Source: Pseudomonadota bacterium (GTDB taxonomy: Bacteria; Pseudomonadota; Alphaproteobacteria; Rhodospirillales; Casp-alpha2). From it: 64,000 nt of DNA. Position 1 is the first letter of the stretch; the number at the start of each line of letters is the position of its first letter. The notes beneath the pieces are model-generated. The model made no database searches and was not told the origin of the DNA. It was given only the letters and a program-made list of their open reading frames with translations. Positions 35,695-52,784 of the stretch are shown in pieces. The stretch lies in assembly GCA_022564115.1 (NCBI GenBank), contig JADFMB010000001.1:2195-66194 (forward strand), read 5' to 3'. The position numbers and the translations under genes were made by a program.

Positions 35695-36711
35695 ATGAAC
35701 CTTTTCGGCAAGGATCTCGACCGCGACATCCCGATTATCGCTGAAATCGGCGTCAACCACGAAGGCGATCTCGAGACCGCCATCACCTTGATGCGCCTGG
35801 CCCGCGACGCCGGGGCCGATGCCGCCAAATTCCAAACCTTCACGCCGGAACGCTATGCCTCGGCGTCCGATCCCGACCGGCTGCAACGGGTGCGGGGTTT
35901 CGATTTGGGCGAGGACGGCTTTCGCCGCATCGCCGAGGAAGCGGAAAAAGACGGGTTCCCGGTTTTTTCGACTGCGGTTTCCGAAGACGTGGTGCCGTTC
36001 CTGGCTGGACTGTTCCCGGTCCTCAAGATCGCCAGTGGCGACATCGATTTCGAGCCGGTGATCCGGGCAGCGGCGGAAACCGGCAAACCGGTGATCCTAT
36101 CGACCGGCCTGGCGACGGAGGAAGAAGTCGATGCCGCCGTCGGCTGGTTTCGGGATGGGGCGGGGACCGAGGACATCCGCGACCGTTTGGTGCTGATGCA
36201 CTGCGTTTCCGCCTATCCGACCCCGATCAAGGAAGCCAACGTGATGAGCATCCCCTATCTGTCCGAACGGACGGGCCTGAGAATCGGCTATTCCAACCAC
36301 ATCATCGGACCCGAGGCCTGCCTGGCCGCCGTGGCGTTGGGGGCTTGCGCGATCGAAATCCACTTCACCGACCGCAAGGAAGGTCGGGAATTCCGCGATC
36401 ATGCGCTATCGTGTGACGCCGACGACCTGGCCCGCCTGGTCGAGACGGTGCCCCGAATCCGCGCCAGCCTGGGCCGGCGGGAAAAGCAGCGCCAACCCAG
36501 CGAGATGGAGAACCTGATCGCCGTCCGCAAGGGCGTGGTGGCGGCCCGCGACCTCGAAGCCGGGGCGGTATTATCAAGAGACGACCTGATGTTCGCCCGC
36601 CCGGCAAGCGAATATCCGGCCTCTGAAATCGACAGCCTTCCCGGCGCCCGCCTGAAAGCGGCGGTCGGCAAAGGGGAACTCATTCGCCGCGACAACGTGG
36701 ATTTTGGGTAA
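35695..36711 (+). CDS. N-acetylneuraminate synthase family enzyme (NeuB/PseI/LegI-type nonulosonic acid synthase)
   Basis: - N-terminal motifs PIIAEIGVNHEGD and AKFQTF.
- Core motifs KIASGD and MHCVSAYP.
- C-terminal SAF-like domain (AVRKGVVAARDLEAGAVLSRDDL).
- ATG 35695 chosen over the TTG at 35644. Confidence 0.85.
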   Translation: MNLFGKDLDRDIPIIAEIGVNHEGDLETAITLMRLARDAGADAAKFQTFTPERYASASDPDRLQRVRGFDLGEDGFRRIAEEAEKDGFPVFSTAVSEDVVPFLAGLFPVLKIASGDIDFEPVIRAAAETGKPVILSTGLATEEEVDAAVGWFRDGAGTEDIRDRLVLMHCVSAYPTPIKEANVMSIPYLSERTGLRIGYSNHIIGPEACLAAVALGACAIEIHFTDRKEGREFRDHALSCDADDLARLVETVPRIRASLGRREKQRQPSEMENLIAVRKGVVAARDLEAGAVLSRDDLMFARPASEYPASEIDSLPGARLKAAVGKGELIRRDNVDFG

Positions 36712-36716
36712 ACCCT

Positions 36717-38579
36717 ATGTGCGGAATCGCGGGCGTCATCGGCCCCGAGCCCCCTTCTCCCCATCACATCAAGGCCGCGTTGCAGGCTCTGGGACGCCGG
36801 GGTCCCGACGCCGATGGCACCGGCGAATACGCCGTCGGCGGCGCCAACGTCACCCTGATCCACACCCGGCTTTCGATCATCGACCTCGACCCCCGGGCCA
36901 ATCAGCCCTTCGAGCAGGACGGGTTGGTGCTCTGCTACAACGGCGAGCTTTACAATTACCTGGAACTTCGCCGGGAGCTGGAAGCCCTGGGCCATGCCTT
37001 CGCTACCCAGTCCGATACCGAGGTGCTGCTTCACGCCTACCGGGAATGGGGCTCCGGCTGCCTGGACAGGTTCGAGGGCATGTGGGCCTTCGCGTTGCTG
37101 GATTCGGCCAATGGCACCCTGGTCCTGAGCCGCGACCGGTTCGGCGAAAAGCCGTTGTATACCTGGAAACGGGGCCAATTCCTTTATTTCGCCTCGGAGG
37201 TCAAGGCATTGGCGGCGCTCTCCGGCGGCAAGCCCGCCGTCAATACGGACCAAGTTCTCCGCTACTTGGTCAACGGCTACAAATGCCTGCACAAGCAGCC
37301 CCGGACGTTCTTCGAGGAGATCCGGGAATTCCCCGCCGCTTCGGTGGCCGAACTGCCGCTCGTCGGCGCTGAAGCGCCGGAGCCGAAGCCCGAGCCCTAT
37401 TGGACCCTGGGCCGGGACGCCTTGGACATGACGGCCGAAGACGCCCTGCAAGGCGCCCGCGAGCGGCTGTTCAAATCCGTTGAATTGCGGCTTCGCGCCG
37501 ACGTACCGCTGGCCTTCTGCCTTTCCGGCGGCGTCGATTCGGCGACCCTGGCGGCCATCGCGGCCAGACATTTCGGCCATGAAATCCATTGTTTCTCCAT
37601 CATCGACGCCGACGAACGCTACGACGAACGCGAAAACATCGGCGTCATGGTCGATTGGCTCGGTTGCGAACACCATGCCGTGCACACCACGAGCGAGGGT
37701 TTTTTCCCCCGCCTGCGGGAACTGGTCGCCTACCACGACGCCCCGGTGGCCACCATCAGCTACTACGTCCATTCGTTCCTGTCCGAAGCTATCGGCGAAA
37801 AGGGCTACAAGGTGGCGGTTTCCGGGACCGGGGCGGATGAATTGTTCACCGGTTACTACGACCACTATTCCATGTGGCTGGCGGCGATGTCGCGCCTTGC
37901 CGAAGACGACCCCGGCATCGATTTCGAAGCCCTGATGGCCGACTGGCGGCGGGGATTCGGCAAATACGTGCGGAACCCGCTGCTTCAGGACCCGTTGACG
38001 TTCGCCAGCGACCCCGCTCAGCGCGGCCACATCCTGCTCGATCAGGAATTCTTCGAAGGCTTCCTCCTGCACCCTTTCCATGAGGATTTCGCCGAAGAGG
38101 ACTACGCCGGCGAACTGCTCCGCAATCGGATGCTGAACGAGCTTTTCCACGAGGTCGTGCCGGTGATCCTCGAAGAGGACGACCGCAATTCCATGTTCCA
38201 TTCGGTCGAGAACCGGTCCCCTTACCTGGACCGGCACCTGGCGGAGTTCCTGAACCAGGTGCCGAGCCGGCACCTGATCGGCGGCGGCTTCGCCAAGTGG
38301 CTGTTGCGCCAGGCCGGCGACGGGCTGGTCCCCGATTCCGTCAGGCTTGACAAACGCAAGCGCGGTTTCAATGCTTCGGTGGATTCCCTGATCGACCGCC
38401 AAGACCCGGAAACCCGGGACATTCTCTTGGCCGACAGCCCCATTTTCGATCTCGTCAGCCGCCAGCGGATGGCGGCGTTTTTGGACGAGGACATGACTTC
38501 CAACAGCTTTTCCAAGTTCCTGTTCAGCTTCGTATCCGCCAAGACGTTCCTGGAGCATCACCGGGACTGGCGGCCATGA
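36717..38579 (+). CDS. Asparagine synthase (glutamine-hydrolysing) family amidotransferase
   Basis: An Ntn nucleophile (MCGIAG) is followed by the PP-loop SGGVDS in the synthetase domain; 620 aa. Confidence 0.85.
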   Translation: MCGIAGVIGPEPPSPHHIKAALQALGRRGPDADGTGEYAVGGANVTLIHTRLSIIDLDPRANQPFEQDGLVLCYNGELYNYLELRRELEALGHAFATQSDTEVLLHAYREWGSGCLDRFEGMWAFALLDSANGTLVLSRDRFGEKPLYTWKRGQFLYFASEVKALAALSGGKPAVNTDQVLRYLVNGYKCLHKQPRTFFEEIREFPAASVAELPLVGAEAPEPKPEPYWTLGRDALDMTAEDALQGARERLFKSVELRLRADVPLAFCLSGGVDSATLAAIAARHFGHEIHCFSIIDADERYDERENIGVMVDWLGCEHHAVHTTSEGFFPRLRELVAYHDAPVATISYYVHSFLSEAIGEKGYKVAVSGTGADELFTGYYDHYSMWLAAMSRLAEDDPGIDFEALMADWRRGFGKYVRNPLLQDPLTFASDPAQRGHILLDQEFFEGFLLHPFHEDFAEEDYAGELLRNRMLNELFHEVVPVILEEDDRNSMFHSVENRSPYLDRHLAEFLNQVPSRHLIGGGFAKWLLRQAGDGLVPDSVRLDKRKRGFNASVDSLIDRQDPETRDILLADSPIFDLVSRQRMAAFLDEDMTSNSFSKFLFSFVSAKTFLEHHRDWRP

Positions 38580-39313
38580 GCAAATCGGATTCCCAAACCG
38601 CCGCCATTATTCAGGCCCGCCATTCCTCGACCCGGCTGCCGGGCAAGGTGATGATGCCGCTGGCCGGGGTGCCGGTGCTGACCCATATCGTCGAGCGGGC
38701 GAAGCGGATCGAAGGCATCGACGCCGTTTGCGTCGCCGTCCCCGACGGCCCCGGACAGGAGCCATTGGTGGCGCTGGCCGAAGACCTGGTCCGGGAATCC
38801 GACACCGTGCATCTTTCTTTCGGCCCCGAGGAAGACCTGGTCAGGCGCTATGCCATCGCCGTCCAACAACTGGCCGCCGACACCGTGATGCAGCTTTGGG
38901 GCGACTGCCCGCTGATCGACCCCGCCGTGGCCGGCGCGCTTCTGGCCGCCTACCGCCGGGCCGGCGTCTCTTTTGCCACCATCCCCGACGACAGCGGCTA
39001 CCCCGAAGGGGTCGAGGCCCATGTCATGTCGGCCGAGGCGATCCTGACCGCCGATCGTGAAGCCACCGACCCGGAGGAACGCGAGGCCTTCCACCTTTTT
39101 TTCAGCCGCCGTCCGGAGCGCTTTCCGTCCATTCACCTCAACCGGAAACCGAACCGGCACGCGCTCAAGGTCCTTCTCGATACCGAAGACGATTACCAGC
39201 GTTTGAGCCAAATCTTCGATGCCCTTTACCCCCGGAATCCCGTCTTCGGAATCGGCGAGATCGAAGCCCTGGCCGAGGAAAGGCCCGAGCTTTTCAAAGG
39301 CAACGCCCCATGA
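38576..39313 (+). CDS. SpsF-like cytidylyltransferase family protein (copy 1 of 3)
   Basis: AIIQARHSSTRLPGKVMMPLAGVPVL. It aligns with the paralogs at 47303 and 49307, and its start overlaps the previous stop (ATGA). Confidence 0.7.
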   Translation: MSKSDSQTAAIIQARHSSTRLPGKVMMPLAGVPVLTHIVERAKRIEGIDAVCVAVPDGPGQEPLVALAEDLVRESDTVHLSFGPEEDLVRRYAIAVQQLAADTVMQLWGDCPLIDPAVAGALLAAYRRAGVSFATIPDDSGYPEGVEAHVMSAEAILTADREATDPEEREAFHLFFSRRPERFPSIHLNRKPNRHALKVLLDTEDDYQRLSQIFDALYPRNPVFGIGEIEALAEERPELFKGNAP

Positions 39314-39384
39314 GGCCGAGATGTCCGAAACCCGCTTAAGGGCTTTCCTTTCCAGCCCCGTTTCCGCCAAGATGGTCGGCGACC

Positions 39385-40404
39385 ATGACGGATAAGGAAA
39401 ACAAACTGGGGGTCGGGGTCATCGGCCTCGGGGTCGGCGAGCAGCACGCTCTTGCCTACGCCGGGCATGACGGCTGTGACCTGCGTTGGCTTTTCGATAT
39501 TTCCGAGGACCAGGCCCGGGCCGTCCAGGGCCGCGTCGGCATGGGCGGCATCGCCGAAAGCTTCGAGCAAATCCTCGGCGACGAGGAAACCGGGCTGGTT
39601 TCGATCGCTTCCTTCGACCACCTGCACTTCGAGGAAGTCAAGGCCGCCTTCGGGGCCGGCAAGAACGTCTTCGTCGAAAAGCCGCTGTGCCGGACCAACG
39701 AAGAGCTCTCCACCCTAAAGCAAGCCTGGGAAAGCGCCGGAAAGCCCTATCTGCAGTCGAACCTGGTGCTCCGCCAGGCGCCCGTCTACCGGTGGCTGAA
39801 ACAAGCCCTGACCGACGGCCGGTTGGGAACGGTCTACGCCTTCGATGGCGATTACCTTTACGGCCGCCTGGAGAAAATCACCGAAGGCTGGCGCAAGGAC
39901 GTGCCAGATTATTCGGTGATGGAAGGCGGCGGCGTGCACCTGATCGACCTGATGCTGTGGTTTCTCGGCCAACGGCCCACACGGGTCACCACCCACGGAA
40001 ACCGCCTCTGCACCAAGGGTACGGATTTCCGCTATAACGACTTCATGGCCTCGACCTTCGAGTTTCCGTCCGGCGCCATCGGACGGATTACCGCCAATTT
40101 CGGCTGCATGCACCGTCACCACCATGTGATCCGGGTGTTCGGGACTGGGGCGACGTTCATCCATGACGACCAGGGCCCGCGCCTCCATGAAACCCGGAAT
40201 GAGGACTCGGCGGCGGAAATGCTGGACCTCGAAACCCTGCCGGCCCACAAGGGGGTCTTGATCCCGGATTTCGTCGATAACATCCTCAACGGCGGCGATG
40301 CGGAAACCCCGGCGAAGCGCGAGTTCGACCTCATTTCCGTTATCGCCGCCGCCGACGAAGCCCTGGGCGCCGCCGGCCCGGTCGAGATCGGATACGTGAC
40401 ATGA
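39385..40404 (+). CDS. Gfo/Idh/MocA family NAD(P)-dependent oxidoreductase (copy 1)
   Basis: N-terminal Rossmann motif (GVGVIGLGVGEQH) and EKPL motif (VFVEKPLC). Confidence 0.8.
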   Translation: MTDKENKLGVGVIGLGVGEQHALAYAGHDGCDLRWLFDISEDQARAVQGRVGMGGIAESFEQILGDEETGLVSIASFDHLHFEEVKAAFGAGKNVFVEKPLCRTNEELSTLKQAWESAGKPYLQSNLVLRQAPVYRWLKQALTDGRLGTVYAFDGDYLYGRLEKITEGWRKDVPDYSVMEGGGVHLIDLMLWFLGQRPTRVTTHGNRLCTKGTDFRYNDFMASTFEFPSGAIGRITANFGCMHRHHHVIRVFGTGATFIHDDQGPRLHETRNEDSAAEMLDLETLPAHKGVLIPDFVDNILNGGDAETPAKREFDLISVIAAADEALGAAGPVEIGYVT

Positions 40405-41603
40405 AGAAACTGGATATTCCTTTCGGGCGGCCCTGGATCGCCAACGAAGACCGCAAGGCGGTGATGGACGTGCTGAAAGGACACATCCTGACCCACGGCC
40501 CCAACTGCACGGCCTTCGAGGACGAGTTCGTGGCCATGATGGGCGGCGGCTCCGCCGCCTCGACCTCGTCGTGCATGGCGGCGCTGCACCTGTCATACCT
40601 GCATTTCGAACTCGGCCCCGGCGACGAGGTGATCGTCCCGGCGATGACCCACGTTGCCACCGTGCACGCGGTCGCCTTGACCGGGGCGACGCCGGTGTTC
40701 GTGGACTGCGAACTGCAATCGGGCAACATGGACTTGAACCGCATCGAAGACGCCGTCACGCCGCGCACCCGGGCCCTGTCGGTGGTCCATTTCTGCGGCA
40801 TTCCGTGCGCCATGCCGGATGTGATGCGCATCGCCGACCGTTATGGCCTTCGGGTGATCGAGGACTGCGCCCTTGCCGTCGGCGCGCGGTACGACGACCG
40901 CCACGTCGGGCTGTTTGGCCATACGGGCTGTTATTCGTTCTATCCGGTCAAGCACATCACCACCGGCGAAGGCGGCATGCTGGTTTCCCAATACGAAGAC
41001 GTTGTCGGGGCGATCTCGCGTTTTCGCGCCTTCAACGTCGACCGCTCGCACACGGAACGCACCATCCCCGGCATCTACGACGTCACCGGGGTCGGCATGA
41101 ACTACCGGATGAGTGAGATGCAGGCCGCCCTCGGCCGCACCCAGATCAAGAAAATCCCGGAAATCGCCAAGCGCCGGTCGAAGAATTTCAGGGCCCTGAA
41201 GGAAGGAATGTTGGCCATCGAAGGCGTTTCGGTCCTCGACGCCGCCGACGACCGGGCGCTTAACAGCCATTACTGCCTGATTGCCGTCCTGTCCGGCGAT
41301 TTGGCCCGGCGCCGTGATGATATGGTGCGTGCCTTGAACGAACGCGGCGTCGGTACCAGCATCTATTATCCCCATCCGGTGCCCCGGTTGAGCCATTACC
41401 GGACCAAATACGGGTACGACTCCGCCCTTTATCCAAGCGCCGAGACCATCAGCGACCGTTCCATCGCGCTGCCGGTGGGGCCGCATCTGACGACAAGGGA
41501 CATGGCCGATATGGCCAAGGCGTTTTCCGCCGCCGTCAGCGGCAAGACCAGGAAACCAGCCCAAAAAGCGCCTGGAAAAAAGCCCAGGGCGAGGAAAAAA
41601 TAA
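40401..41603 (+). CDS. DegT/DnrJ/EryC1/StrS family PLP-dependent sugar aminotransferase (copy 1) with Lys-rich C-terminal tail
   Basis: FEDEFVAMMG ... SFYPVKHITTGEGGMLV contains the PLP lysine context. The tail reads GKTRKPAQKAPGKKPRARKK. Confidence 0.85.
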   Translation: MKKLDIPFGRPWIANEDRKAVMDVLKGHILTHGPNCTAFEDEFVAMMGGGSAASTSSCMAALHLSYLHFELGPGDEVIVPAMTHVATVHAVALTGATPVFVDCELQSGNMDLNRIEDAVTPRTRALSVVHFCGIPCAMPDVMRIADRYGLRVIEDCALAVGARYDDRHVGLFGHTGCYSFYPVKHITTGEGGMLVSQYEDVVGAISRFRAFNVDRSHTERTIPGIYDVTGVGMNYRMSEMQAALGRTQIKKIPEIAKRRSKNFRALKEGMLAIEGVSVLDAADDRALNSHYCLIAVLSGDLARRRDDMVRALNERGVGTSIYYPHPVPRLSHYRTKYGYDSALYPSAETISDRSIALPVGPHLTTRDMADMAKAFSAAVSGKTRKPAQKAPGKKPRARKK

Positions 41604-41852
41604 GGGTTTCGGGCGCCAATCCCTCTTTCGTTAACCAAAACCGCCCGATTAGGCCACCAACCGGGATCGAGAATCCCAATCCCTAAACCGTTTTCGAAAC
41701 ATCCTGTTAACGAATCGCCGCTTTAATAGGGTTAATGAATCGACCCCCAGAGGATCCAGAGGATATAGTGATCGAGGTTCAGCCTGGAAAACCGGACATC
41801 AAGGTCACCGTCCAGAACGTGACGGCTCGATTCACAGAATGAGGAGTGCGTC

Positions 41853-42935
41853 ATGCCAAGACCTTTAACCCCCGACAAGATCAAGAAAATCCTGTCCGGC
41901 GAACGCGTGGCGCTGGTCGGCGGCGCCGGGTTTATCGGCCACAACCTTGCCATCGGATTACGCAAGTTCGGCGTCGAGGTCCTGGTCGCCGACAACCTGA
42001 TGCAGAACAACATGGTCGATAACCTTTCGCAGAAGGAAATCGATCCTTTCCGCCGTGAGCTGAACTATGGATTCCTGACCCAGCGTTTCGAGTTGATGCG
42101 CGACGCCGGCGTTCTCCTGCGCAACGCCGATGCGCGCTCCATGACCGACCTGCCGGAGGTCCTGCACGAGTTCGAACCGACCAAGATCGTCCACCTTTCC
42201 GCCATCTCCAGCGCCGTCGAAGCCAAGAAGGTGCCCGGGCTCTGTTTCGACCTGCAATTGATTACCCTGCGCAATGTCCTGGAATACACGCGGCTGTTCC
42301 CGGAACGGATCGATCAGGTGGTGTTTCTGAGTTCGTCGACCGTTTACGGCGATTTCAATGGACCGACGGTCGACGAAAGCGTGCGTCCCCGGCCCTATGG
42401 CATTTACGCCAACGCCAAGTTCATGGGCGAACGGCTGGTCCGCACCTACAGCGACCAATACGGCCTCGGCGTCACCGTCATCCGGCCGAGCGCCCTTTAC
42501 GGCGAACGTTGCGTATCGCGGCGCGTCAGCCAGGCGTTCATCGAAAACGCCCTGATGGGAAAGCCGCTGTTGTTGGAAGGCGGCGGCGACGGGCGGTTGG
42601 ACTTCACCTACATCGACGACCTGGTGGACGGCATCATCCGTTCCATGGCCGCCCACGAGGGACCGGGGACCACCGAAACGTTCAATATCACCTACGGCAA
42701 CGCGCGCACCATCGCCGAATTGGCCGCTATCGTGAAATCCGTCGTCCCCGACGCCATCCTCGAGGAACGCCAGAGGGACAAAATCAAGCCCATTCGCGGC
42801 ACCCTTTCGACCAAGCGGGCCGAGGAAATCCTGGACTTCAAGCCCCAATGGCCGCTGGAAACCGGTTACAAGCGTTATTGCGAATGGTACGTGGATCAGT
42901 GGGAGCGGACGCAACGCCGTTTGGAAGCCAACTGA
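41853..42935 (+). CDS. NAD-dependent epimerase/dehydratase (extended SDR)
   Basis: Cofactor motif VGGAGFIGHNL and catalytic YANAK; 360 aa. Confidence 0.8.
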   Translation: MPRPLTPDKIKKILSGERVALVGGAGFIGHNLAIGLRKFGVEVLVADNLMQNNMVDNLSQKEIDPFRRELNYGFLTQRFELMRDAGVLLRNADARSMTDLPEVLHEFEPTKIVHLSAISSAVEAKKVPGLCFDLQLITLRNVLEYTRLFPERIDQVVFLSSSTVYGDFNGPTVDESVRPRPYGIYANAKFMGERLVRTYSDQYGLGVTVIRPSALYGERCVSRRVSQAFIENALMGKPLLLEGGGDGRLDFTYIDDLVDGIIRSMAAHEGPGTTETFNITYGNARTIAELAAIVKSVVPDAILEERQRDKIKPIRGTLSTKRAEEILDFKPQWPLETGYKRYCEWYVDQWERTQRRLEAN

Positions 42936-42970
42936 TATCCCTCCGTCACTTGTCCTAACGGTAATCACCG

Positions 42971-43585: not shown

Positions 43586-43593
43586 GCCCGCCG

Positions 43594-44337: not shown

Positions 44338-44362
44338 TCTAGGTCATGAACGGAAAGCCCGA

Positions 44363-45478: not shown

Positions 45479-45497
45479 CCGGGGGCATCCGCCAGCC

Positions 45498-46394
45498 ATG
45501 AACCGAGAAGGAACGACCCTTTATCCGTGCGATCTCTGCGCCTCGGAAGATCTGGCCGAGGTGCCGTCGTCGAAGCATTACAGCGGCGGCTGGCCGCTGC
45601 ACGTGTGCCGGCAATGCGGCTTCGCCCAGGTGGCGCTCCGCCGCCCGCCGGAAGCGATCCAAAAGGATTGGGCCGACGAACTGTACCGGGCCGACGACGG
45701 CCAAAGGCTCTCCAACGCCACTTACACCGCCCGAATGCCCGCCGTCCACGCACGTCAGGTGTTCGCCGCCGATTTCCTCAACGAAGCCGTGGACCTCAAG
45801 GGCAAGAGCGTCGTCGACATCGGCGCCGGCGAGGGGCATTTCCTGGCCATGCTGCAAGGGCCGGAATTCGGCGCCGCCGGGTTCGCCATCGAGCCGTCGG
45901 CGGCCAATGGCGAACTCCTGAAAAACCTGGGGATCGAGGCCTTTCAGGGCACCATGGAGGATTACGCCGCGGCCCCTGAAGCCTCCGGGCGCCGCTTCGA
46001 CGTGGCGACCCTGATCTGGACCCTGGAAAACTGCCAATCGGCCCTGGGCGTGCTCAAGGCGGCGGCCGGAATCCTGAACGACGGCGGCCATATCCTGGTC
46101 GCCACCGGATCCCGTATCCTGGTGCCATTCAAGAAGCCGTTGCAGTACTATTTCGGCGACAACATGGACATCCATCCTTTCCATTTTTCGGCCAATTCCC
46201 TGAAGGGACTCCTGGCCGTCGCCGGTTTCGAAACCAGCCATGAAAACCGCCATATCGACAGCGACTATTTGGTGCTCGTCGGCCGCAAGGCGGCGGGAAC
46301 GGACGTCCCGTGGCAAGGCGACGAGGCCGAGAAGGTCCTCGATTTCTTCGAACGCTGGCACCAGGACACCCAGGCCAATTTCAAGGAAGCTTAA
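45498..46394 (+). CDS. Class I SAM-dependent methyltransferase with N-terminal Cys4 ribbon
   Basis: CDLC...CRQCGF, then the SAM motif VVDIGAGEGHF. Confidence 0.75.
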   Translation: MNREGTTLYPCDLCASEDLAEVPSSKHYSGGWPLHVCRQCGFAQVALRRPPEAIQKDWADELYRADDGQRLSNATYTARMPAVHARQVFAADFLNEAVDLKGKSVVDIGAGEGHFLAMLQGPEFGAAGFAIEPSAANGELLKNLGIEAFQGTMEDYAAAPEASGRRFDVATLIWTLENCQSALGVLKAAAGILNDGGHILVATGSRILVPFKKPLQYYFGDNMDIHPFHFSANSLKGLLAVAGFETSHENRHIDSDYLVLVGRKAAGTDVPWQGDEAEKVLDFFERWHQDTQANFKEA

Positions 46395-46397
46395 GCC

Positions 46398-47306
46398 GTG
46401 CAGGACATCGTGATCTATCTCAACGGCGAACGGGGCTTGGCGACGCTGGAACGCATCGTCGCCGAAGGCCATGCCTTCGCCCGCGCCATCGTGCCGGCGA
46501 ATCTGGAAGGATCGGACATCGCCGAACGGGCCGCGGCCGCGGGCGCGCCCGTCGAAGCCGTCGCCGACGTCAACGACCCCGAATTCGTTGGCGCCCTGAG
46601 CGCGCTTAAACCCCAATTGGGGCTGATCGCCGGCTATTCGACGATCTTCAAGGCGCCGCTGATCGAAACCCCGGCCAGGGGGACCATCAACCTGCACGCC
46701 GGGCGGCTGCCCCAATACCGGGGCGGATCGCCCTTGAACTGGCAGATCATCAACGGCGAAAAGACCGCCGGCATCAGCGTCACCCGCATCGACGAAGGCA
46801 TCGACACCGGCCCGGTGCTGGCCAGGGCCGAATTCCCCATCGAGGCCACGGACACCATCGCCGACCTGCACGGCAAGGCCAACCGACTGTTCCCCGAACT
46901 GGTGCTCGGCGTTCTTCGCTCCATGGACGGCGGCACCTTGACCGAAACCCCCCAGGACGAGGCCGAGGCCCATTATTGGCGCCAGCGCAAACCCGCCGAC
47001 GGGCGCATCGACTGGCGGCGGATGACGGCGCGCCAGGTGTATGACCTGGTGCGCGCCGTGACCCGCCCCTACCCCGGCGCCTTCACCGAATGGGACGGCA
47101 AGCAGGTGCGGGTATTCGGCACCGAGCTGACGGAAAACGGGTTTGCCGGTCAACCGGGCCGCGTTTCCCGGTCGGACGGCGGGCCCGCCGTCGCGTGTAG
47201 CGAAGGCGCGGTGTTGTTCACCGATTTCGACATCGACGGCGACGCCGGGGCGGAGCTTCCCCCCGGAGTCCAATTGGACGCCCGATTGGGCGAGGATGGA
47301 CCATGA
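46398..47306 (+). CDS. Formyltransferase (Fmt/ArnA N-domain-like; probable sugar N-formyltransferase)
   Basis: INLHAGRLPQYRGGSPLNWQIINGE...GISVTRIDEGIDTG contains the formyl-transferase HxSLLPxxRG-like motif, with an Fmt-like C-terminal domain. Confidence 0.8.
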   Translation: MQDIVIYLNGERGLATLERIVAEGHAFARAIVPANLEGSDIAERAAAAGAPVEAVADVNDPEFVGALSALKPQLGLIAGYSTIFKAPLIETPARGTINLHAGRLPQYRGGSPLNWQIINGEKTAGISVTRIDEGIDTGPVLARAEFPIEATDTIADLHGKANRLFPELVLGVLRSMDGGTLTETPQDEAEAHYWRQRKPADGRIDWRRMTARQVYDLVRAVTRPYPGAFTEWDGKQVRVFGTELTENGFAGQPGRVSRSDGGPAVACSEGAVLFTDFDIDGDAGAELPPGVQLDARLGEDGP

Positions 47307-48025
47307 CCGTCGGGCTGGTGATATTTTCCAGGATGGATTCCCAAAGGCTGCCGGGCAAGGCATTGAAAACCTTTGCCGGCCGGGCCATGCTTGGCCATGT
47401 CATCGACCGCGCGGTTGCCACCCTCAACGCCGACACGGTCATCGTCGCCACCTCCGATCGCGACACCGATGACGATATCGCCGCCTTTGCCGAAACCCAG
47501 GGAGCCAAGGTTTTCCGTGGTTCCGCCGATGACGTTCTCGGCCGGGCGGTCGCCTGCGCCGAAACCTTTGGTTTGACCGTGTTGGGCCGCATCTGCGGCG
47601 ACAGCCCCTTCATCAGCCCGCAAATGCTGGGCCGGTTGCTGCTTGTGCATAGAACCGAAGGCCCCGAGGTGACGACCAACCTTTTCCCCCGCAGCTATCC
47701 GGCCGGGATGAGTTTCGAGGTCATGACCATCGACGCCCTGAGGCGCCTCGATGGTTTGGTGGACGATGCCGATCGCCGCGAGCACATGACCCGCTTTATT
47801 TACGAGAACCCCGATCAATTCCGTATCCATAACGTCGCCTCGGGGTTTGACGGCTGGGACGGCATCCCGCTGACGGTGGACAGCGCCGATGACTTGGTGC
47901 AAGCCAATTGGCTGTTCGGCAGATTAAAGGAAACGGGCGAGGAAATGACCATTGCCTCTGTCCTGACCCTGGCCAGGGAATGGCGGCGAACGAACCCGGT
48001 CGAACAAAGGGACAAGGTCTTATGA
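47303..48025 (+). CDS. SpsF-like cytidylyltransferase family protein (copy 2 of 3)
   Basis: VIFSRMDSQRLPGKALKTFAGRAML. Paralogous to 38576 and 49307. Confidence 0.7.
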   Translation: MTVGLVIFSRMDSQRLPGKALKTFAGRAMLGHVIDRAVATLNADTVIVATSDRDTDDDIAAFAETQGAKVFRGSADDVLGRAVACAETFGLTVLGRICGDSPFISPQMLGRLLLVHRTEGPEVTTNLFPRSYPAGMSFEVMTIDALRRLDGLVDDADRREHMTRFIYENPDQFRIHNVASGFDGWDGIPLTVDSADDLVQANWLFGRLKETGEEMTIASVLTLAREWRRTNPVEQRDKVL

Positions 48026-49302
48026 GCGAACTGGCGCTGCTCGGCGGCCAACCGGTGATATCCGGTCCGCTGCCGCCCTACCGGTCCCTGGGCGAGGCCG
48101 AGGAGGAAGCGGTCCGCGACGTGGTGCGGTCGGGCTGCCTGTCGGGTTTCTTCGGCAGCCCGGGGCCGGAGTTCCTGGGCGGGCCGAAAGTCCAGGAATT
48201 CGAGGCCGCGTGGGCCAAGCGTTACGGCGTCAAACACGCCGTCAGCGTCAATTCCGCCACCTCGGGCCTGATCGCCGCCATGGGCGCCATCGGCCTCGGC
48301 CCCGGGGACGAGGTCATCCTGCCGCCGTGGACGATGTCGGCGACGGCCATGGCGCCCCTGATCTATGGCGGCATTCCGGTGTTCGCCGACATCGAGGACG
48401 AAACCTTCTGCATCGACCCCGGCGCCGTCGCCGCCGCCATCGGCCCCAAGACCAAAGCCATTCTGGCGGTCAACCTGTTCGGGCATCCGGCGCCGCTGGC
48501 CAAACTGCGGGCGATCGCCGACGACAAGGGACTGGCCCTGGTCGAAGACAGCGCCCAGGCGCCGCTGGCCAACGAGGACGGACGCCTGGCCGGCACCGTC
48601 GGCGACATCGGCGTCTACAGCCTCAATTTCCACAAGCACATCCACGCCGGCGAGGGCGGCGTCTGCGTCACCGACGACGACGGCCTGGCGACACGCCTGC
48701 GGATGATTCGCAACCACGGCGAAAACGTCACCGAAGAGTTGGCCGGCGGCGACATCGCCAACATGGTCGGATTCAACTTCCGGATGACCGAATTGAGCGC
48801 CGCCATCGCCCTGGTCCAGCTTGCCGATATCGAAAACCACGTCGGTCGCCGCGAAGCCGTGGCCCGGGCCCTGAGCGACGGCACCCGGGATCTGGAGGGA
48901 TGGACCGCGCCAACTGAGCGCGACGGCTGCCGCCATAACTATTACGAATGGGTGGCGCGCTTCGACGCCCAGGCCGTGGGCGTCAGCCGCGAGCTTTTCT
49001 CGAAGGCGCTGACGGCCGAGGGCTTCCCCCATTTTACCGGCTACGTGGCGCCGCTGTATCAACTGCCCCTTTTCCGGCAACGAAAAGCCATCGGCAAGGA
49101 CGGCTATCCGTTTACCCTCACCGAGCGCCAATACGAGCCCGGAATGTGCCCGGTGACCGAGCGGCTGCACGAAAACGAAGCGGTCCTGTTCGAGCCCTGC
49201 GCCTTCGCCGTCGACGACGCCCTGGCCCAAAAATTGGTCGAAGCCGTGCGCAAGGTCCATGACAACCGGGACCTTTTGAACGCCGCCGGCGGAAAGGATT
49301 AA
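48022..49302 (+). CDS. DegT/DnrJ/EryC1/StrS family PLP-dependent sugar aminotransferase (copy 2)
   Basis: EFEAAWAKRYGVKHAVSVNSATSGL ... SLNFHKHIHAGEGG. The start ATG 48022 overlaps the previous stop. Confidence 0.85.
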   Translation: MSELALLGGQPVISGPLPPYRSLGEAEEEAVRDVVRSGCLSGFFGSPGPEFLGGPKVQEFEAAWAKRYGVKHAVSVNSATSGLIAAMGAIGLGPGDEVILPPWTMSATAMAPLIYGGIPVFADIEDETFCIDPGAVAAAIGPKTKAILAVNLFGHPAPLAKLRAIADDKGLALVEDSAQAPLANEDGRLAGTVGDIGVYSLNFHKHIHAGEGGVCVTDDDGLATRLRMIRNHGENVTEELAGGDIANMVGFNFRMTELSAAIALVQLADIENHVGRREAVARALSDGTRDLEGWTAPTERDGCRHNYYEWVARFDAQAVGVSRELFSKALTAEGFPHFTGYVAPLYQLPLFRQRKAIGKDGYPFTLTERQYEPGMCPVTERLHENEAVLFEPCAFAVDDALAQKLVEAVRKVHDNRDLLNAAGGKD

Positions 49303-49306
49303 GCCG

Positions 49307-50047
49307 GTGCCGAAATTCATCGCCAGCATCGAGGCCCGGATGGGATCGACCCGCCTGCCGGGCAAGATCCTGGAAGACGTCGGCGGGGTGCCAGTGTTGA
49401 CGCGGCTGTTGCGCCGCCTGCGGCGGGCCAAGCGGCTTGACGGCATCGTGTTGGCCACCACCGTCAATCCGGCCGACGACGCCATCGAGGAATGGGCCGA
49501 GGGCGAGGGCCTGGACTGGTTCCGCGGCAGCGAGGACGACGTGCTGGCCCGGGTCGTCGATGCCCAGCAAATGATGCGTTCGGACATCGTCGTCGAGGTT
49601 TGCGGCGATACGCCGCTGCTCGACCCGGAGGTCATCGACATGGCCATCGAGGCCTTCGCCGCCAACACCTGCCACGTGGTCACGACGACGCGCAAGAAGT
49701 CGTTCCCCGACGGCATCGACGCCGAGGTGTTCCGGCTTTCCGATCTCGAACGCGTCGCCGCCACCGTCACCGACCGGGCGGTGCGCGAACACGTGTCGCT
49801 GTATTTCTACCAACACCCGGAACGCTACCGCATCCATCATCTGCCGGCGCCCCCCGCATGGCGCCGCCCCGACCTGCGGCTGGTCCTCGACGAAGCCGAT
49901 GATCTGGCGCTTATCCGCGAAATCTACACCCGGCTGGAGCCCGAACACGGGGACGAATTCGGCACGGTCGAGATCATCCGGCTCTTCGACAGCGAGCCGG
50001 AACTGATGAACATCAACCGGCCGGCAAGCGAAAAGGTGGCGCCATGA
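49307..50047 (+). CDS. SpsF-like cytidylyltransferase family protein (copy 3 of 3)
   Basis: ASIEARMGSTRLPGKILEDVGGVPVL, with a GTG start. Confidence 0.7.
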   Translation: MPKFIASIEARMGSTRLPGKILEDVGGVPVLTRLLRRLRRAKRLDGIVLATTVNPADDAIEEWAEGEGLDWFRGSEDDVLARVVDAQQMMRSDIVVEVCGDTPLLDPEVIDMAIEAFAANTCHVVTTTRKKSFPDGIDAEVFRLSDLERVAATVTDRAVREHVSLYFYQHPERYRIHHLPAPPAWRRPDLRLVLDEADDLALIREIYTRLEPEHGDEFGTVEIIRLFDSEPELMNINRPASEKVAP

Positions 50048-51066
50048 CCGGCAACGGCCTGCGCACCATCGTCATCGGCTTCGGCCAGATCGCCCAGGGT
50101 TTGGGCGAGGACGGCCGGATGGCGAAATTTTTCACCTACGCCACCCATGCCCAGGTGTTGAGGGATCATCCGGGGTTTCAATGGCTGGGCGTCGTCGACC
50201 CTTCGAAGGAAGCGCAAAAGGCGGCCCGGGACGTTTGGAACGTCGCCCACGTTTCGGAGGACCTTTCGAAGGTCGCCCGCGAGGTCGAACCGGAAGTGGC
50301 CATTATCGCCGCGCCCCCCGGCGCCCGGGCCGAGATCGTGCAGCAACTCCCCAGCCTCAAGGCGGTGCTGGTGGAAAAGCCGCTGGGCTACGGCGGCGAG
50401 GAAGGCCGGGCGTTCGTCGATTTCTGCCGGCAAAAGAACGTCCATGTGCAGGTGAATTACTGGCGCCGCGGCGACGAGCTCTACCAACAGCTTGCCCAGG
50501 GTGGCCTCGCCGAGCGGATCGGCCGCCCGCAGGCGGTGTTCGCCACCTACGGCAACGGGCTGTTCAACAACGGTGGTCATCTGGTGGATTTCATCCGCAT
50601 GCTTTTGGGCGAGGTCGACACGGTGCAGGCCCTGGACCATCCCCGCCCGGCTGAGGACGCGCCGCTGGAAGGCGATGTCCAGGCGGCCTTTGCCCTGACC
50701 CTTGCCGGCGGCGCCATCGTCACCGTGCTGCCGCTGGACTTCGGCCACTACCGCGAGGTCGGCCTCGACATCTGGGGCGAGGAAGGACGGTTGGCGCTCT
50801 ATCAGGAAAGCCTCGGCGTCTTCCACTATCCCCTCGCCGGCAACCGGGGCCTGGTAAACGAAATGGAGATCAGCTCCGACAAGCCCCAGGTCCTGGAACC
50901 GACGGTGGGAGGCGCGCTCTATCGGCTTTACGACAACCTGGCCGAAACCGTTGACGGCACCGCCGAGCCCTGGAGCCCCGGCGATCAAGCCGTGCATACG
51001 GAGTTGATTTTGGAATCGGTGCTGAATTCGGCGGAGAGCGGGTGCGAACGGCTGCATTTCCAATGA
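50044..51066 (+). CDS. Gfo/Idh/MocA family oxidoreductase (copy 2)
   Basis: Rossmann-like N-terminus (RTIVIGFGQIAQG) and VLVEKPLG motif. Confidence 0.7.
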   Translation: MTGNGLRTIVIGFGQIAQGLGEDGRMAKFFTYATHAQVLRDHPGFQWLGVVDPSKEAQKAARDVWNVAHVSEDLSKVAREVEPEVAIIAAPPGARAEIVQQLPSLKAVLVEKPLGYGGEEGRAFVDFCRQKNVHVQVNYWRRGDELYQQLAQGGLAERIGRPQAVFATYGNGLFNNGGHLVDFIRMLLGEVDTVQALDHPRPAEDAPLEGDVQAAFALTLAGGAIVTVLPLDFGHYREVGLDIWGEEGRLALYQESLGVFHYPLAGNRGLVNEMEISSDKPQVLEPTVGGALYRLYDNLAETVDGTAEPWSPGDQAVHTELILESVLNSAESGCERLHFQ

Positions 51067-51070
51067 TGGG

Positions 51071-52234
51071 ATGGGCGCCATGAGCGGCGGCGGAAAGGAC
51101 CGGGCGGACGTGTTGATCTTCGTCGAGGATCCGGGTGCCGTGAACGCCGTCGTCGACCTGCCGCAAGCCCTGGCCGCCACGGGACTGAAGACCCGGACGT
51201 TGGCCACCGGGCACGCGGTGGAATACCTGGCCTCGTTCGGCGCCGATTTCACCGAACCTGACGCGGCCGCCGACGCCGCCGCTCTGATCGACGCCCTCAA
51301 CCCGCGAATGGTCGTCTCCGGCACTTCTGAAAACCCGGATACGCTCGGCCTCAAGTTGATCGCCGAAGCCCGGAAACGGGGGCTTGCCAATGTCGGCTTC
51401 CTGGACGGCCCGGCGAGCGCCGACCACCGGTTCCGGGGCTCCGGCGACGTCCCTCTGGCCTTCGCCCCGGAATGGATCCTGGTCCCCGACGCCATGACCC
51501 GAAAGCGTTACCAGGCCCTGGGGCATCCGGTTGAACGCATCGTCGATTGCGGGCATCCCTATTTCGACCGGGTGCGGGTGACCGCCGCCGAACTGGCGAA
51601 ACGGGGCAAGGCGGCGGTCCTGGCCGAGGTTTTGCCCGACGCGCCGCCGGACCGGCCGGTGGTCGTGTTCCTGGCCGAGATTTCGACCAGCCTGGCCCCG
51701 GAAAAGCTTCGCCGGAGCCCCGAATACACCCTCCACGGGCGCGGCGGCAGCGACCTGCGCACCCAAATCGTGCTTGAGGAGGTTCTGGACGCGGTGACGC
51801 TGATCGAGCCCCGGCCTTATTTCGTGCTGCGGCTGCATCCTAAGAATTCGGCCGATGAATTCGACGCCTACGGCCCCGAAATCGACTCCCTCAGCCAATC
51901 CGGGCTGGCCGCCGATCTTGTTTACGCCGCCGACCTGGTGATCGGGATGACGACCATCCTGCTGTTCGAGGCCGCCCTGATGGACTGCCCGACCCTCAGC
52001 GTCACCCCCAAGCCGTCTGAAACCGAGTGGCTGACCAGCATCGGCCTCGGCATCACCCCTTCGGTGCACACGCGGGAAGATCTCAGGGAAATCCTGCCCG
52101 CGGCGCTCGCCGATCCGGGCCGGGTGATGGGCACGCCGCCGGGGGAGGTTTTAAACTTCGGCGCCCTGGAACGGATGGCGGATTTTATTTCCGGTCTGCT
52201 GGCGGATGACACAAGCGCCCGGGAAACGAACTGA
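51071..52234 (+). CDS. Hypothetical protein, possibly two-Rossmann (GT-B-like) fold; candidate for the missing hydrolase/epimerase or transferase step
   Basis: This is a clean 387-aa ORF in the operon with alternating beta-alpha-like segments (VLIFVEDPG..., VVVFLAEIS..., LVIGMTTILLFEAALMDCPTL). No diagnostic motif recognised. Confidence 0.5.
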   Translation: MGAMSGGGKDRADVLIFVEDPGAVNAVVDLPQALAATGLKTRTLATGHAVEYLASFGADFTEPDAAADAAALIDALNPRMVVSGTSENPDTLGLKLIAEARKRGLANVGFLDGPASADHRFRGSGDVPLAFAPEWILVPDAMTRKRYQALGHPVERIVDCGHPYFDRVRVTAAELAKRGKAAVLAEVLPDAPPDRPVVVFLAEISTSLAPEKLRRSPEYTLHGRGGSDLRTQIVLEEVLDAVTLIEPRPYFVLRLHPKNSADEFDAYGPEIDSLSQSGLAADLVYAADLVIGMTTILLFEAALMDCPTLSVTPKPSETEWLTSIGLGITPSVHTREDLREILPAALADPGRVMGTPPGEVLNFGALERMADFISGLLADDTSARETN

Positions 52235-52250
52235 TCGAGGGAACCCGACG

Positions 52251-52784
52251 ATGGCCGAAGCCCCGACATTGGAAACCCCGCGCCTGACGCTGGCGCCGTT
52301 TTCGGACGAACACCTGACGGAGCGCTACGTCGGCTGGCTCCAGGACCCGGACGTGGTCCGTTATTCCGAACAGCGCCACCGCACGCATACCCTGGAGAGT
52401 TGCCGCCAATTCGCCGCCTCGTTCGCCGACGGGCCCAGCCACCTGTGGGCGATCATCGAGAATAAACAAGGCCTCGGCCATATCGGCAACATCAACTCCG
52501 ACGTCGACGCCGCCAACCGGACCGCCGACGTCGCCGTCATGATCGGCGAGAAACAGGCCTGGGGACAGGGATTGGGCTTTGAGGCCTGGAACGCCGTTCT
52601 CGATTATCTTCTCGGCCCCGGCGCCATGCGCAAGGTGACCGCCGGCACCATGGCCGAAAACAAGGGCATGCTGGCGATTTTCGAGAAATCCGGGATGACC
52701 GAGGAAGGGCGCAGGAAAAAGCAGTTCCAGTTGCTGGACCGCGAAGTGGACGCCATCCTGGTCGCCCGTTTCGCCGAAACCTAG
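52251..52784 (+). CDS. GNAT family N-acetyltransferase (RimJ/RimL-like)
   Basis: RLTLAPFSDEHLTERYVGWLQDPDV ... WGQGLGFEA. The start is placed at ATG 52251. Confidence 0.8.
   Translation: MAEAPTLETPRLTLAPFSDEHLTERYVGWLQDPDVVRYSEQRHRTHTLESCRQFAASFADGPSHLWAIIENKQGLGHIGNINSDVDAANRTADVAVMIGEKQAWGQGLGFEAWNAVLDYLLGPGAMRKVTAGTMAENKGMLAIFEKSGMTEEGRRKKQFQLLDREVDAILVARFAET

Follow-up and report, generated by a model that had tools for sequence, protein, structure and literature searches.

Introduction

Nonulosonic acids on flagella and lipopolysaccharide (LPS) influence motility, the susceptibility to phages and recognition by the immune system, and knowledge of their biosynthesis serves both genome annotation and the enzymatic production of CMP-sugars. 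Among the described pathways, that leading to CMP-legionaminic acid (CMP-Leg) in Campylobacter jejuni (LegB/C/H/G/I/F with PtmE/F/A) makes use of a private nucleotidyltransferase, an aminotransferase, an N-acetyltransferase, a hydrolysing 2-epimerase, a NeuB-type synthase and a CMP activation, with a WbuX-type amidotransferase and a methyltransferase (PtmG and PtmH) for the acetamidino (Am) and N-methylated acetamidino (AmNMe) forms, and Maf transfer to flagellin. The oxidoreductase PtmF adjoins the nucleotidyltransferase in C. jejuni (PMC4481668), and the pathway-specific nucleotidyltransferase PtmE/LegX insulates Leg synthesis (bioRxiv 10.1101/2022.03.25.485807). We describe here a cluster of 17 genes (hereafter referred to as the operon, genes g1 to g17) that shares this logic. 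It lies at positions 35695-52784 of a 64,000-nucleotide (64 kb) stretch of contig JADFMB010000001.1 (hereafter referred to as the window) from a Pseudomonadota bacterium of the order Rhodospirillales (assembly GCA_022564115.1).

The operon nevertheless differs from the C. jejuni pathway in several respects. It has no LegB 4,6-dehydratase, its N-acetyltransferase is a GNAT protein, and its candidate nucleotidyltransferase is of the PF02348 SpsF type, whereas PtmE is a GlcN-1-P guanylyltransferase. The 2-epimerase slot would be filled by a member of an unnamed, highly divergent GT-B family (g16), and the operon additionally encodes two pairs of Gfo/Idh/MocA (GFO) dehydrogenase and DegT aminotransferase, an AsnB-type amidotransferase and an Fmt-type formyltransferase. 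All its scores against equivalog hidden Markov models (HMMs) of the Leg pathway were below the cut-off.

Other systems share parts of this gene content. The sps Leg pathway of Bacillus subtilis (SpsM/C/D/G/E/F) also has an SpsF-type cytidylyltransferase (CT), a DegT protein, an acetyltransferase (SpsD), a sugar-nucleotide hydrolase step (SpsG) and a NeuB homologue, and genetic evidence places SpsF at the activation of Leg to CMP-Leg (PMC7439481). However, that pathway has one CT and a PglF-like dehydratase (SpsM), whereas the operon has three CTs, GFO dehydrogenases and no dehydratase. The WbpA/B/E/D/I pathway, with WbpG, leading to UDP-ManNAc3NAc(Am)A in Pseudomonas aeruginosa and Bordetella shares a GFO dehydrogenase, a DegT aminotransferase, an N-acetyltransferase, a 2-epimerase and a WbuX-family amidotransferase with the operon. 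The operon, by contrast, has no UDP-GlcNAc 6-dehydrogenase, has a CT embedded among these genes and an acetyltransferase of a different fold, and is found in a flagellin/Maf/NeuB setting rather than an O-antigen setting. The WbuX/Y/Z (AglX/Y/Z) trio is represented by g9, which passes the WbuX cut-off, and by its HisH- and HisF-like partners g7 and g8, although the substrate in the operon is presumably a nonulosonate or its precursor and not FucNAc. Finally, the Kdo8N enzymes KdnB/KdnA and the sialic acid oxidoreductases RgNanOx/YjhC provide precedents for oxidation (and, in the case of Kdo8N, transamination) of a free ulosonic acid, but KdnB is an iron alcohol dehydrogenase rather than a GFO protein, and RgNanOx and YjhC serve in catabolism and do not produce an amine.

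Gene content and the absence of canonical dehydratase logic

The window had previously been interpreted from its sequence alone, without database searches (hereafter referred to as the sequence-only reading), as containing 17 co-directional genes for a decorated nonulosonate. These genes proved to be real: 17 open reading frames (ORFs) on the plus strand span the operon, none with an internal stop, and every family named in that reading was matched in Pfam or NCBIfam profile searches of the ORFs. Inspection of the motifs indicated that the catalytic signatures of the operon's enzymes were intact. The identification of the operon as a true flagellin-glycosylation nonulosonate pathway, without canonical dehydratase logic, is solid; its product is predicted to be heavily nitrogen-decorated. 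Equally solid is the conclusion that the amino groups come from pairs of GFO dehydrogenase and DegT aminotransferase, and that the operon encodes enzymes for amidino, N-methyl, formyl and acetyl decoration.

On the basis of profiles and motifs, the operon falls outside the canonical pathways for pseudaminic acid (Pse) and Leg, with no PseB/LegB-, PseG- or PtmE-type protein and equivalog scores below the cut-offs. No dehydratase of the PseB/PglF type (Polysacc_synt_2, STDK motif) or of the RmlB/LegB type (TDE/TSE) was found anywhere in the window. The operon also had no protein with a Glyco_tran_28_C domain (PseG type) and no nucleotidyltransferase of the PtmE/LegX type, its sole nucleotidyltransferases being of the PF02348/PF12804 types. 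The lack of a canonical PseB/LegB dehydratase and of a PseG/NeuC-type hydrolase, noted in the sequence-only reading, was therefore borne out. Among the related loci described below, a PseB-like enzyme was present within 10 kb in 16 others, but in none of those resembling the window.

The same reading had put forward two genes as possible fillers of these gaps, and they fared differently. The first, g6, has the GxxGxxG, SSSTVYG and YANAK (YxxxK) motifs of a short-chain dehydrogenase/reductase (SDR), with SSSTVYG where a dehydratase would have the TDE/TDK acid-base pair. Its nearest solved structures are mostly GalE-type epimerases, its relatives are 60-76% identical, and its score with the LegB model was 60 bits (cut-off 475), without the catalytic Glu. 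The motif and the nearest relatives rule against a PseB/LegB dehydratase, and g6 is, from these features, of the epimerase or reductase type. The second candidate, g16, does fit the missing hydrolase step, as described below.

A five-gene cassette conserved across phyla

A scan of GTDB species genomes anchored on the g16 family returned 80 loci, from Alphaproteobacteria, Planctomycetota, Desulfobacterota, Nitrospirota, Acidobacteriota, Melainabacteria, cyanobacteria, Myxococcota, Verrucomicrobiota and Legionella; all the host phyla are diderm. The order DegT2-CT3-GFO2-g16-GNAT (hereafter referred to as the cassette) was conserved in about 80 loci, with g16 3' of GFO2 in 60 loci and GNAT 3' of g16 in 34. 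Counts of NeuB and CT genes were restricted to the 47 loci with at least 9 kb on both flanks. NeuB was present in 35 of these 47 loci, and 25 of the 35 had at least two CTs. As two or more CTs per NeuB is the commoner state, the excess of CTs is a property of the pathway family and not of this genome. No NeuB was found within 10 kb of the cassette in the other 12 of the 47 loci (e.g. Spirulina, L052, and Polyangiaceae, L062), and WbuX genes were found near the cassette in 26 of the 47. NeuB lay directly upstream of the cassette in 14 loci.

The operon can be divided into three modules, each carrying its own SpsF-type CT. Parts of the first (M1, NeuB-AsnB-CT1) recur elsewhere, as NeuB-AsnB in L023, L069 and L076 and as AsnB-CT1 in L042, L064 and L070. 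The second (M2, GFO1-DegT1-SDR...CT2) is contiguous and directly upstream of the cassette in L006, L038, L044, L055 and L066; in the window, the tailoring genes (WbuX/Y/Z, methyltransferase and Fmt) are inserted between the SDR gene and CT2. The third module (M3) is the cassette itself.

The feature that merits further attention is, in our view, the cassette with its unnamed GT-B family and not the number of CTs in itself. The cassette occurs in many diderm phyla, including Legionella species, yet g16 is matched by no Pfam or NCBIfam model and its family bears no functional name. Among its carriers are complete genomes (Legionella lansingensis, Tagaea sp. OZ257249, Syntrophales OY764159 and Alphaproteobacteria OZ245842) and the cultured species Elstera litoralis and Asaia bogorensis. 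If the cassette is dehydratase-free, cytidine-linked or both, it will be missed by the current rules for predicting Pse, Leg and Neu pathways. If it is not, it still constitutes a well-defined set of five co-evolving genes. Action of the cassette on 3-deoxy-D-manno-octulosonic acid (Kdo) was considered, since the best named HMMs for CT3 were of KdsB types and the hosts are all diderm, but the fusion of a 2-epimerase-like g16 to GNAT or GFO does not fit this interpretation.

The g16 family

The g16 protein (387 aa as first called) matched no Pfam or NCBIfam model, and an exact look-up matched no record. Its AlphaFold2 model (pLDDT 94.6) has a GT-B fold, and the top 10 Foldseek matches were all 2-epimerases (E = 3e-12 to 6e-11, TM 0.58-0.66), led by WecB, WbpI and NeuC (E = 3e-12, TM of about 0.65). 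TagF and macrolide glycosyltransferases ranked lower in the list (TM of about 0.5). The best PDB sequence match of the family profile was a WbpI-type UDP-2,3-diacetamido-2,3-dideoxy-glucuronate 2-epimerase. Pfam Epimerase_2 was weakly matched by 25 of 41 g16 relatives (best 9e-8), g16 itself being unmatched; weak matches to rival families were also obtained among these 41 relatives, with Glycos_transf_N (11), Glyphos_transf (3) and polyST (2). In a weak hhalign alignment, the invariant residue D112 of g16 aligned with E117 of WecB, and an acidic residue was located near D95.

The family is large, with 964 representative clusters (50% identity) at E <= 1e-30 and 3193 at E <= 1e-10. No functional name was attached to any of the 89 closest relatives of g16, and the plasmid collection contained no relative. 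Among the top 150 relatives there were four natural g16-GNAT fusions (P0211, P0259, P0266 and P0313) and one GFO-g16 fusion (P0252). The g16-GNAT fusions resemble the PseG-PseH-like fusions of Pse-type loci (L002 and L050). These fusions tie g16, GNAT and GFO2 to the same nucleotide-hexosamine stage. Together with the predicted 2-epimerase-like fold, they fit the earlier suggestion that g16 fills the NeuC/PseG slot, and g16 is, on the basis of its model, the best candidate for the missing NeuC/LegG-type step. A sialyltransferase, a TagF-like enzyme or a Kdo transferase is less well supported than this relationship to epimerases.

The three cytidylyltransferases

The three CTs (CT1 to CT3) have pairwise identities of 26-32%. 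All three belong to PF02348, with an R-x-x-S-x-R-L-P-G-K loop and a GDxP motif, and all retain the KdsB residues R10, S13, R15, K19, P102 and R164. The best solved relative of each was 6OEW (115 bits for CT3, 105 for CT2 and 65 for CT1), a functionally uncharacterised cytidylyltransferase from Leptospira on which a literature search returned nothing. KdsB proteins came next, and there was no CMP-Neu5Ac synthetase among the PDB matches. The best scores with KdsB-type models were 54-74 bits, below the cut-offs of 155-281, and the PseF model was matched by CT2 alone (31 bits, cut-off 206). CT3 is identical to MCH7935503.1, from a metagenome-assembled genome (MAG) labelled “Pseudomonadota bacterium”.

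We annotated 143 cytidylyltransferase domains from the g16-anchored loci locally and clustered them. The three CTs fell into three separate clades, with 78 (CT3), 27 (CT2) and 4 (CT1) members, each with characteristic neighbours. CT3-clade genes had DegT2 upstream in 61 of 75 cases and GFO2 downstream in 63 of 75, and the mean identity of CT3 to its own clade was 55%. The CT2-clade genes lay directly upstream of DegT2 in 25 of 27 cases, and all four CT1-clade genes directly followed AsnB. These data show that the three CTs did not arise by recent duplication and are not peculiar to this genome, each being tied to its own gene module. An origin as recent paralogues or pseudo-enzymes can be dismissed given their low pairwise identity, their three conserved clades and their intact motifs. 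In the sequence-only reading, three CTs against a single synthase were taken to point to a second activated sugar or an unusual nucleotide-linked intermediate, and either may be the case.

Other CT architectures were found in the same set of loci. A 675-aa fusion of a CT to a class-III aminotransferase (Aminotran_3) was present in 19 loci, and L069 and L076 had a CT of the NeuA-HAD type in translational coupling with the GNAT of the cassette. In three other Rhodospirillales MAGs (L042, L064 and L070), CT1, CT2 and CT3 were accompanied by a fourth CT within about 20 kb. The fourth CT is part of a fusion to a GT2 glycosyltransferase (586-599 aa; L064:17181-18941, also L042 and L070), which adjoins a further NeuB homologue on the downstream side of flagellar hook genes. 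A single 688-aa ORF in L017 (L017:6156-8222) combines a CT2-type domain (56% identity to the window CT2) with a DegT2-type domain (69%); as L017 is a MAG, this ORF could be an assembly artefact.

A proposed biosynthetic route and its alternatives

We tentatively favour a route in which the operon makes a CMP-activated, multiply N-substituted nonulosonate, with CT3 acting early, on a hexosamine, and CT2 and CT1 acting late. CT3 would place a pathway-private cytidine nucleotide on a HexNAc, in a role like that of PtmE/LegX with GDP. GFO2 would oxidise a ring hydroxyl of the activated sugar, DegT2 would aminate the resulting ketone, and GNAT would acetylate the new amine. The g16 protein would then remove the nucleotide and epimerise C2 to give a free aldose, for condensation with phosphoenolpyruvate (PEP) by NeuB. 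The CMP-nonulosonate would be made by CT2, and by CT1 in the case of an AsnB-modified variant. GFO1, DegT1, the SDR and the formyltransferase would add and formylate a further amine, or reconfigure a centre. WbuX/Y/Z would convert an acetamido group to an acetamidino group, which the methyltransferase would N-methylate, and the three Mafs would move the products onto flagellin.

The distribution of the CTs is consistent with this early/late division. CT3 is constant and well conserved, whereas its partner varies by clade (CT2, CT-Aminotran_3, NeuA-HAD or GT2-CT). Two compact clusters, NeuB-CT2like-DegT2-CT3-GFO2-g16 (L084) and the translationally coupled cassette-GNAT-NeuA-HAD (L076), would read naturally as having one early and one late CT. 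The nonulosonate cluster of Kuenenia has two legF-like genes, and HexNAc-like species linked to CMP but lacking a keto acid, with residue masses of 203 and 217, have been reported from Magnetospirillum gryphiswaldense (bioRxiv 10.64898/2026.04.20.719630). A PF02348-type mechanism acting on an aldose would give CMP-sugars of just this kind, and the cassette, if this is true, could explain these metabolites.

In its most general form, this proposal would add to the UDP (Pse) and GDP (Leg) routes to nonulosonate precursors a third one, linked to cytidine and encoded by the cassette, with CT3 activating a plain hexosamine, a GFO dehydrogenase replacing the 4,6-dehydratase and g16 replacing NeuC/LegG/PseG. 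We consider this generalisation unlikely at present. If it were true, the product could keep its C9 hydroxyl or bear a third amino group, and access would be gained to new diamino or triamino sugar acids.

Several observations weigh against the favoured route. To our knowledge, the characterised PF02348 enzymes all activate 2-keto-3-deoxy sugar acids. Since the three CTs are all similar to KdsB and 6OEW and the conserved KdsB residues are retained in each, a hexosamine substrate for CT3 appears to be without precedent. C3 is the site of oxidation by the known nucleotide-sugar GFO enzymes (WbpB and GnnA). Because no pyranose nonulosonate can be formed from a 3-amino hexose, GFO2 would have to act with a new regiochemistry, at C4. 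The similarity of g16 to Escherichia coli WecB is weak in sequence (hhalign E = 0.042), and equivalents of WecB E131 and H213 are not evident in g16 in this weak alignment. Some loci (e.g. L023) have NeuB with CT3 as the sole CT within 10 kb, and in 17-19 loci the cassette is accompanied by what looks like a full Pse set and by a single NeuB. Finally, the genome might have core Pse or Leg genes beyond the 64 kb of the window.

The occurrence of NeuB with CT3 alone is better accommodated if all three CTs are late CMP-nonulosonate synthetases, like SpsF in B. subtilis, a possibility to which we attach a lower, though still appreciable, probability. The cassette and NeuB would then form a complete pathway from UDP-GlcNAc (GFO2, DegT2, GNAT, g16, NeuB and CT3), and the GFO1/DegT1/SDR/Fmt set and AsnB would remodel the free nonulosonate, each variant having its own CT (CT2 or CT1) and perhaps its own Maf. 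The chemistry of the PF02348 family, with KdsB-like catalytic residues in all three CTs, the precedent of SpsF as the CMP-Leg activating step (PMC7439481), the pattern of one CT per module and the three Maf paralogues of the window are all consistent with such an arrangement. It is, however, hard to square with compact clusters having two CTs and one NeuB but no second tailoring module (L084 and Kuenenia). In the loci with a full Pse set, the single NeuB would leave the cassette without a synthase of its own, and the greater conservation of CT3 than of its partner CTs is a better fit to an invariant early substrate than to an end product that varies.

Coexistence of the cassette with full Pse sets and a single NeuB, and the lack of a nearby NeuB in 12 of the 47 loci, would instead be expected if the cassette made a second activated sugar bypassing NeuB. 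GFO2, DegT2, GNAT and g16 would act like WbpB, WbpE, WbpD and WbpI, with a nucleotide from CT3, to give a nucleotide-linked 2,3-diacetamido-2,3-dideoxy-hexose, which would be amidinated by WbuX, as by WbpG, and used directly by Maf or another transferase. At the family level, each enzyme of the set has its counterpart in the Wbp pathway. The WbpI-type match of the g16 family, the C3 specificity of the known nucleotide-sugar GFO enzymes, the strong association with WbuX (26/47 loci) and the CMP-linked HexNAc-like species of Magnetospirillum point in the same direction. We nevertheless regard this alternative as quite unlikely. It leaves the NeuB of the window without a visible precursor route, g16 being the sole candidate nucleotide-sugar hydrolase/epimerase, and it does not account for the 14 loci with NeuB directly upstream of the cassette. 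Moreover, the g16-GNAT fusions resemble the PseG-PseH fusions of nonulosonate pathways, and no dedicated glycosyltransferase travels with the cassette.

Amination after condensation is the least probable of the alternatives, and we judge it improbable. According to this scheme, g16 (as a NeuC-like enzyme), NeuB and one CT would give a CMP-sialic-acid-like sugar, and the GFO/DegT pairs would then act on the nonulosonate, at sites such as C7 and C4 or C8, to produce a di- or tri-amino nonulosonate without a dehydratase. The absence of a dehydratase, the higher score of g1 on NeuB_NnaB than on PseI, the presence of RgNanOx and YjhC (GFO-family enzymes that oxidise C4 of sialic acid) among the PDB matches of GFO1, that of KdnA (which aminates free Kdo) among those of DegT2, and the existence of cytidylyltransferase-aminotransferase fusions are all compatible with it. 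However, the GFO-g16 and g16-GNAT fusions tie GFO2 and GNAT to a hexosamine-level enzyme, one CT would suffice, and a literature search turned up no tri-amino nonulosonate.

Synthase, aminotransferases and tailoring genes

The synthase g1 has the TIM-barrel and SAF domains of the NeuB family (PF03102, 194 bits; PF08666, 40 bits). It scored below the cut-off of both equivalogs tested (NeuB_NnaB, 251 bits, cut-off 400; PseI, 198 bits, cut-off 340), and its stereochemical type is therefore not assignable from these models. It is 43-57% identical to the AsnB-adjacent NeuB proteins of L023, L069 and L076. The AsnB protein (g2) scored above the asn_synth_AEB cut-off (401 bits, cut-off 267) and keeps the N-terminal Cys and the SGGVDS motif. 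Amidation of a sugar-acid carboxylate by AsnB, with CT1 as the matched synthetase, is conceivable.

The PDB matches of GFO1 include WbpB, YjhC and RgNanOx, the last two of which oxidise C4 of sialic acid (PMC7535918, PMC7315737). DegT1 scored 271 bits with the PseC model, below its cut-off, and the LegC model (cut-off 420) gave 199 bits for DegT1 and 160 bits for DegT2. The best PDB matches of DegT2 were 8GYH, on which a literature search returned nothing, scyllo-inosose aminotransferases, ArnB and KdnA; DegT2 relatives from different phyla are 55-73% identical. A role of the GFO/DegT pairs in an aminocyclitol (scyllo-inosamine) route is suggested by the scyllo-inosose aminotransferase matches of DegT2 and the inositol dehydrogenase matches of the GFO proteins, but such a role is hard to reconcile with their constant linkage to g16, GNAT and NeuB.

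The amidino (WbuX/Y/Z), methyl, formyl and acetyl tailoring genes predicted in the sequence-only reading are present and look functional, as judged from their families and motifs. The WbuX, HisH and HisF genes are contiguous, as expected for an acetamidino-forming trio. The WbuX and HisH-like proteins scored above the cut-offs of their models and the WbuZ protein below its own (Table 1). A methyltransferase gene like g10 is found 3' of WbuX in many related loci, and the formyltransferase g11 keeps HAGRLPQYRG (pattern HxxxLPxxRG). The presence of these decorations on the final glycan is predicted by inference only.

In two clusters that are otherwise collinear with the operon, a GNAT of 254-257 aa occupies the slot of the formyltransferase (L001:4580-5344 and L083:5444-6217). 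This swap of formyl for acetyl suggests variation on one and the same amine between strains. As there is no deacetylase in the window, the formylated amine would most simply be that made by DegT1. A pair of formyltransferase and polysaccharide-deacetylase genes was found next to NeuB and the cassette in two other loci (L028:3361-4976 and L084:3592-5249), and in a third, the deacetylase alone is visible, at the edge of the locus (L076:40-648). The Kuenenia nonulosonate cluster also has a formyltransferase/deacetylase pair, and its product bears a free amine in addition to a formyl group (bioRxiv 10.64898/2026.04.20.719630).

Gene starts and transcription units

The same set of 17 genes was obtained in independent gene calls on at least three other assemblies of the same cluster. 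The five ATGA start/stop overlaps reported earlier (at 38576, 40401, 47303, 48022 and 50044) were all present. Independent calls moved four starts. That of HisF (g8) is most likely ATG 43594 rather than 43582 (247 aa by the independent call). WbuX (g9) would start at about 44369 (a shift of two codons) and g16 at about 51080 (384 aa, a shift of three codons). With the start of GNAT (g17) at 52251 (177 aa), the 29-nt overlap disappears. The sole sizeable gap of the cluster is that of 249 bp between DegT1 and the SDR gene (41604-41852), which contains a sigma-70-like promoter-like site (41740-41769). The 17 genes described as one operon may therefore correspond to two transcription units. Promoter and terminator scans gave no excess over the shuffled expectation.

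The flagellar island

The operon is embedded in a flagellar island with genes for flagellin, FlaF, FlbT, FlgK, FlgI, FlgE, FliK and FlgD. The island also contains three Maf genes, a tetratricopeptide repeat (TPR) + GT41-like protein, other TPR proteins and a sulfotransferase-like gene (Table 1). The Mafs lie beside flagellin and the nonulosonate genes, as expected for Maf-dependent flagellin glycosylation, and the flagellin-glycosylation setting proposed earlier was thus supported. From this context, glycosylation of flagellin with nonulosonate is the obvious purpose of the pathway.

Table 1. Coordinates in the window and supporting matches of the operon genes and of the neighbouring flagellin, FlaF, FlbT and Maf genes
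Feature	Position	Strand	Evidence
g1, NeuB-family nonulosonate synthase	35695-36711	+	NeuB + SAF domains
g2, AsnB-type glutamine amidotransferase	36717-38579	+	GATase_7 + Asn_synthase
g3, CT1, SpsF-type cytidylyltransferase	38576-39313	+	CTP_transf_3
g4, GFO1, Gfo/Idh/MocA dehydrogenase	39385-40404	+	Pfam; EKP motif
g5, DegT1 aminotransferase	40401-41603	+	DegT_DnrJ_EryC1, 342 bits; pyridoxal phosphate (PLP) lysine
g6, extended SDR, epimerase type	41853-42935	+	Pfam Epimerase
g7, HisH-like glutaminase, WbuY role	42971-43585	+	IMP_synth_hisH, 233 bits (cut-off 105); GICLG
g8, HisF-like cyclase subunit, WbuZ type	43594-44337	+	WbuZ, 242 bits (cut-off 300); AglZ/HisF2, 193 bits
g9, WbuX-family PP-loop N-acetyl-sugar amidotransferase	44363-45478	+	TIGR03573, 325 bits (cut-off 203); SGGKDS
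g10, S-adenosylmethionine (SAM)-dependent methyltransferase	45498-46394	+	Methyltransf_23, 65 bits; motif I VVDIGAGEG
g11, Fmt/ArnA-type N-formyltransferase	46398-47306	+	Formyl_trans_N + C; ArnA N-terminal domain, 168 bits
g12, CT2, SpsF-type cytidylyltransferase	47303-48025	+	CTP_transf_3
g13, DegT2 aminotransferase (cassette)	48022-49302	+	DegT, 272 bits; PLP lysine
g14, CT3, SpsF-type cytidylyltransferase (cassette)	49307-50047	+	CTP_transf_3, 89 bits
g15, GFO2, Gfo/Idh/MocA dehydrogenase (cassette)	50044-51066	+	Pfam; EKP motif
g16, GT-B protein of unnamed family (cassette)	51071-52234	+	predicted fold near UDP-GlcNAc 2-epimerases
g17, GNAT N-acetyltransferase, PseH-like fold class (cassette)	52251-52784	+	Acetyltransf_3 PF13302, 76 bits
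Flagellin, presumed acceptor	32898-34409	-	Flagellin_N + Flagellin_C
FlaF	34582-34932	-	adjoins flagellin
FlbT	35141-35629	+	adjoins flagellin/FlaF
Maf flagellin glycosyltransferase 1	28884-31118	+	Maf_flag10_N + MptE-like
Maf flagellin glycosyltransferase 2	52809-54722	-	Maf_flag10_N + MptE-like
Maf flagellin glycosyltransferase 3	56899-59142	+	Maf_flag10_N + MptE-like + SEC-C

The number of Mafs equals the number of CTs (three each). The TPR + GT41-like protein (690 aa, 25677-27749, plus strand) has an architecture resembling that of FlmG-type flagellin glycosyltransferases, and both known classes of flagellin glycosyltransferase (Maf and FlmG-like) may therefore coexist in the island. The sulfotransferase-like gene (55536-56504, plus strand; Sulfotransfer_2, E = 6e-7) lies between two Maf genes, and a sulfotransferase gene also adjoins the cassette in the Spirulina locus (L052:4281-5510); the glycan, or its precursor, may be sulfated. 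Two further ORFs of the island had no Pfam match: one of 277 aa (27802-28635, minus strand) and one of 862 aa (22263-24851, plus strand). The latter lies directly 3' of flgK, where a hook-associated/filament-junction protein would be expected.

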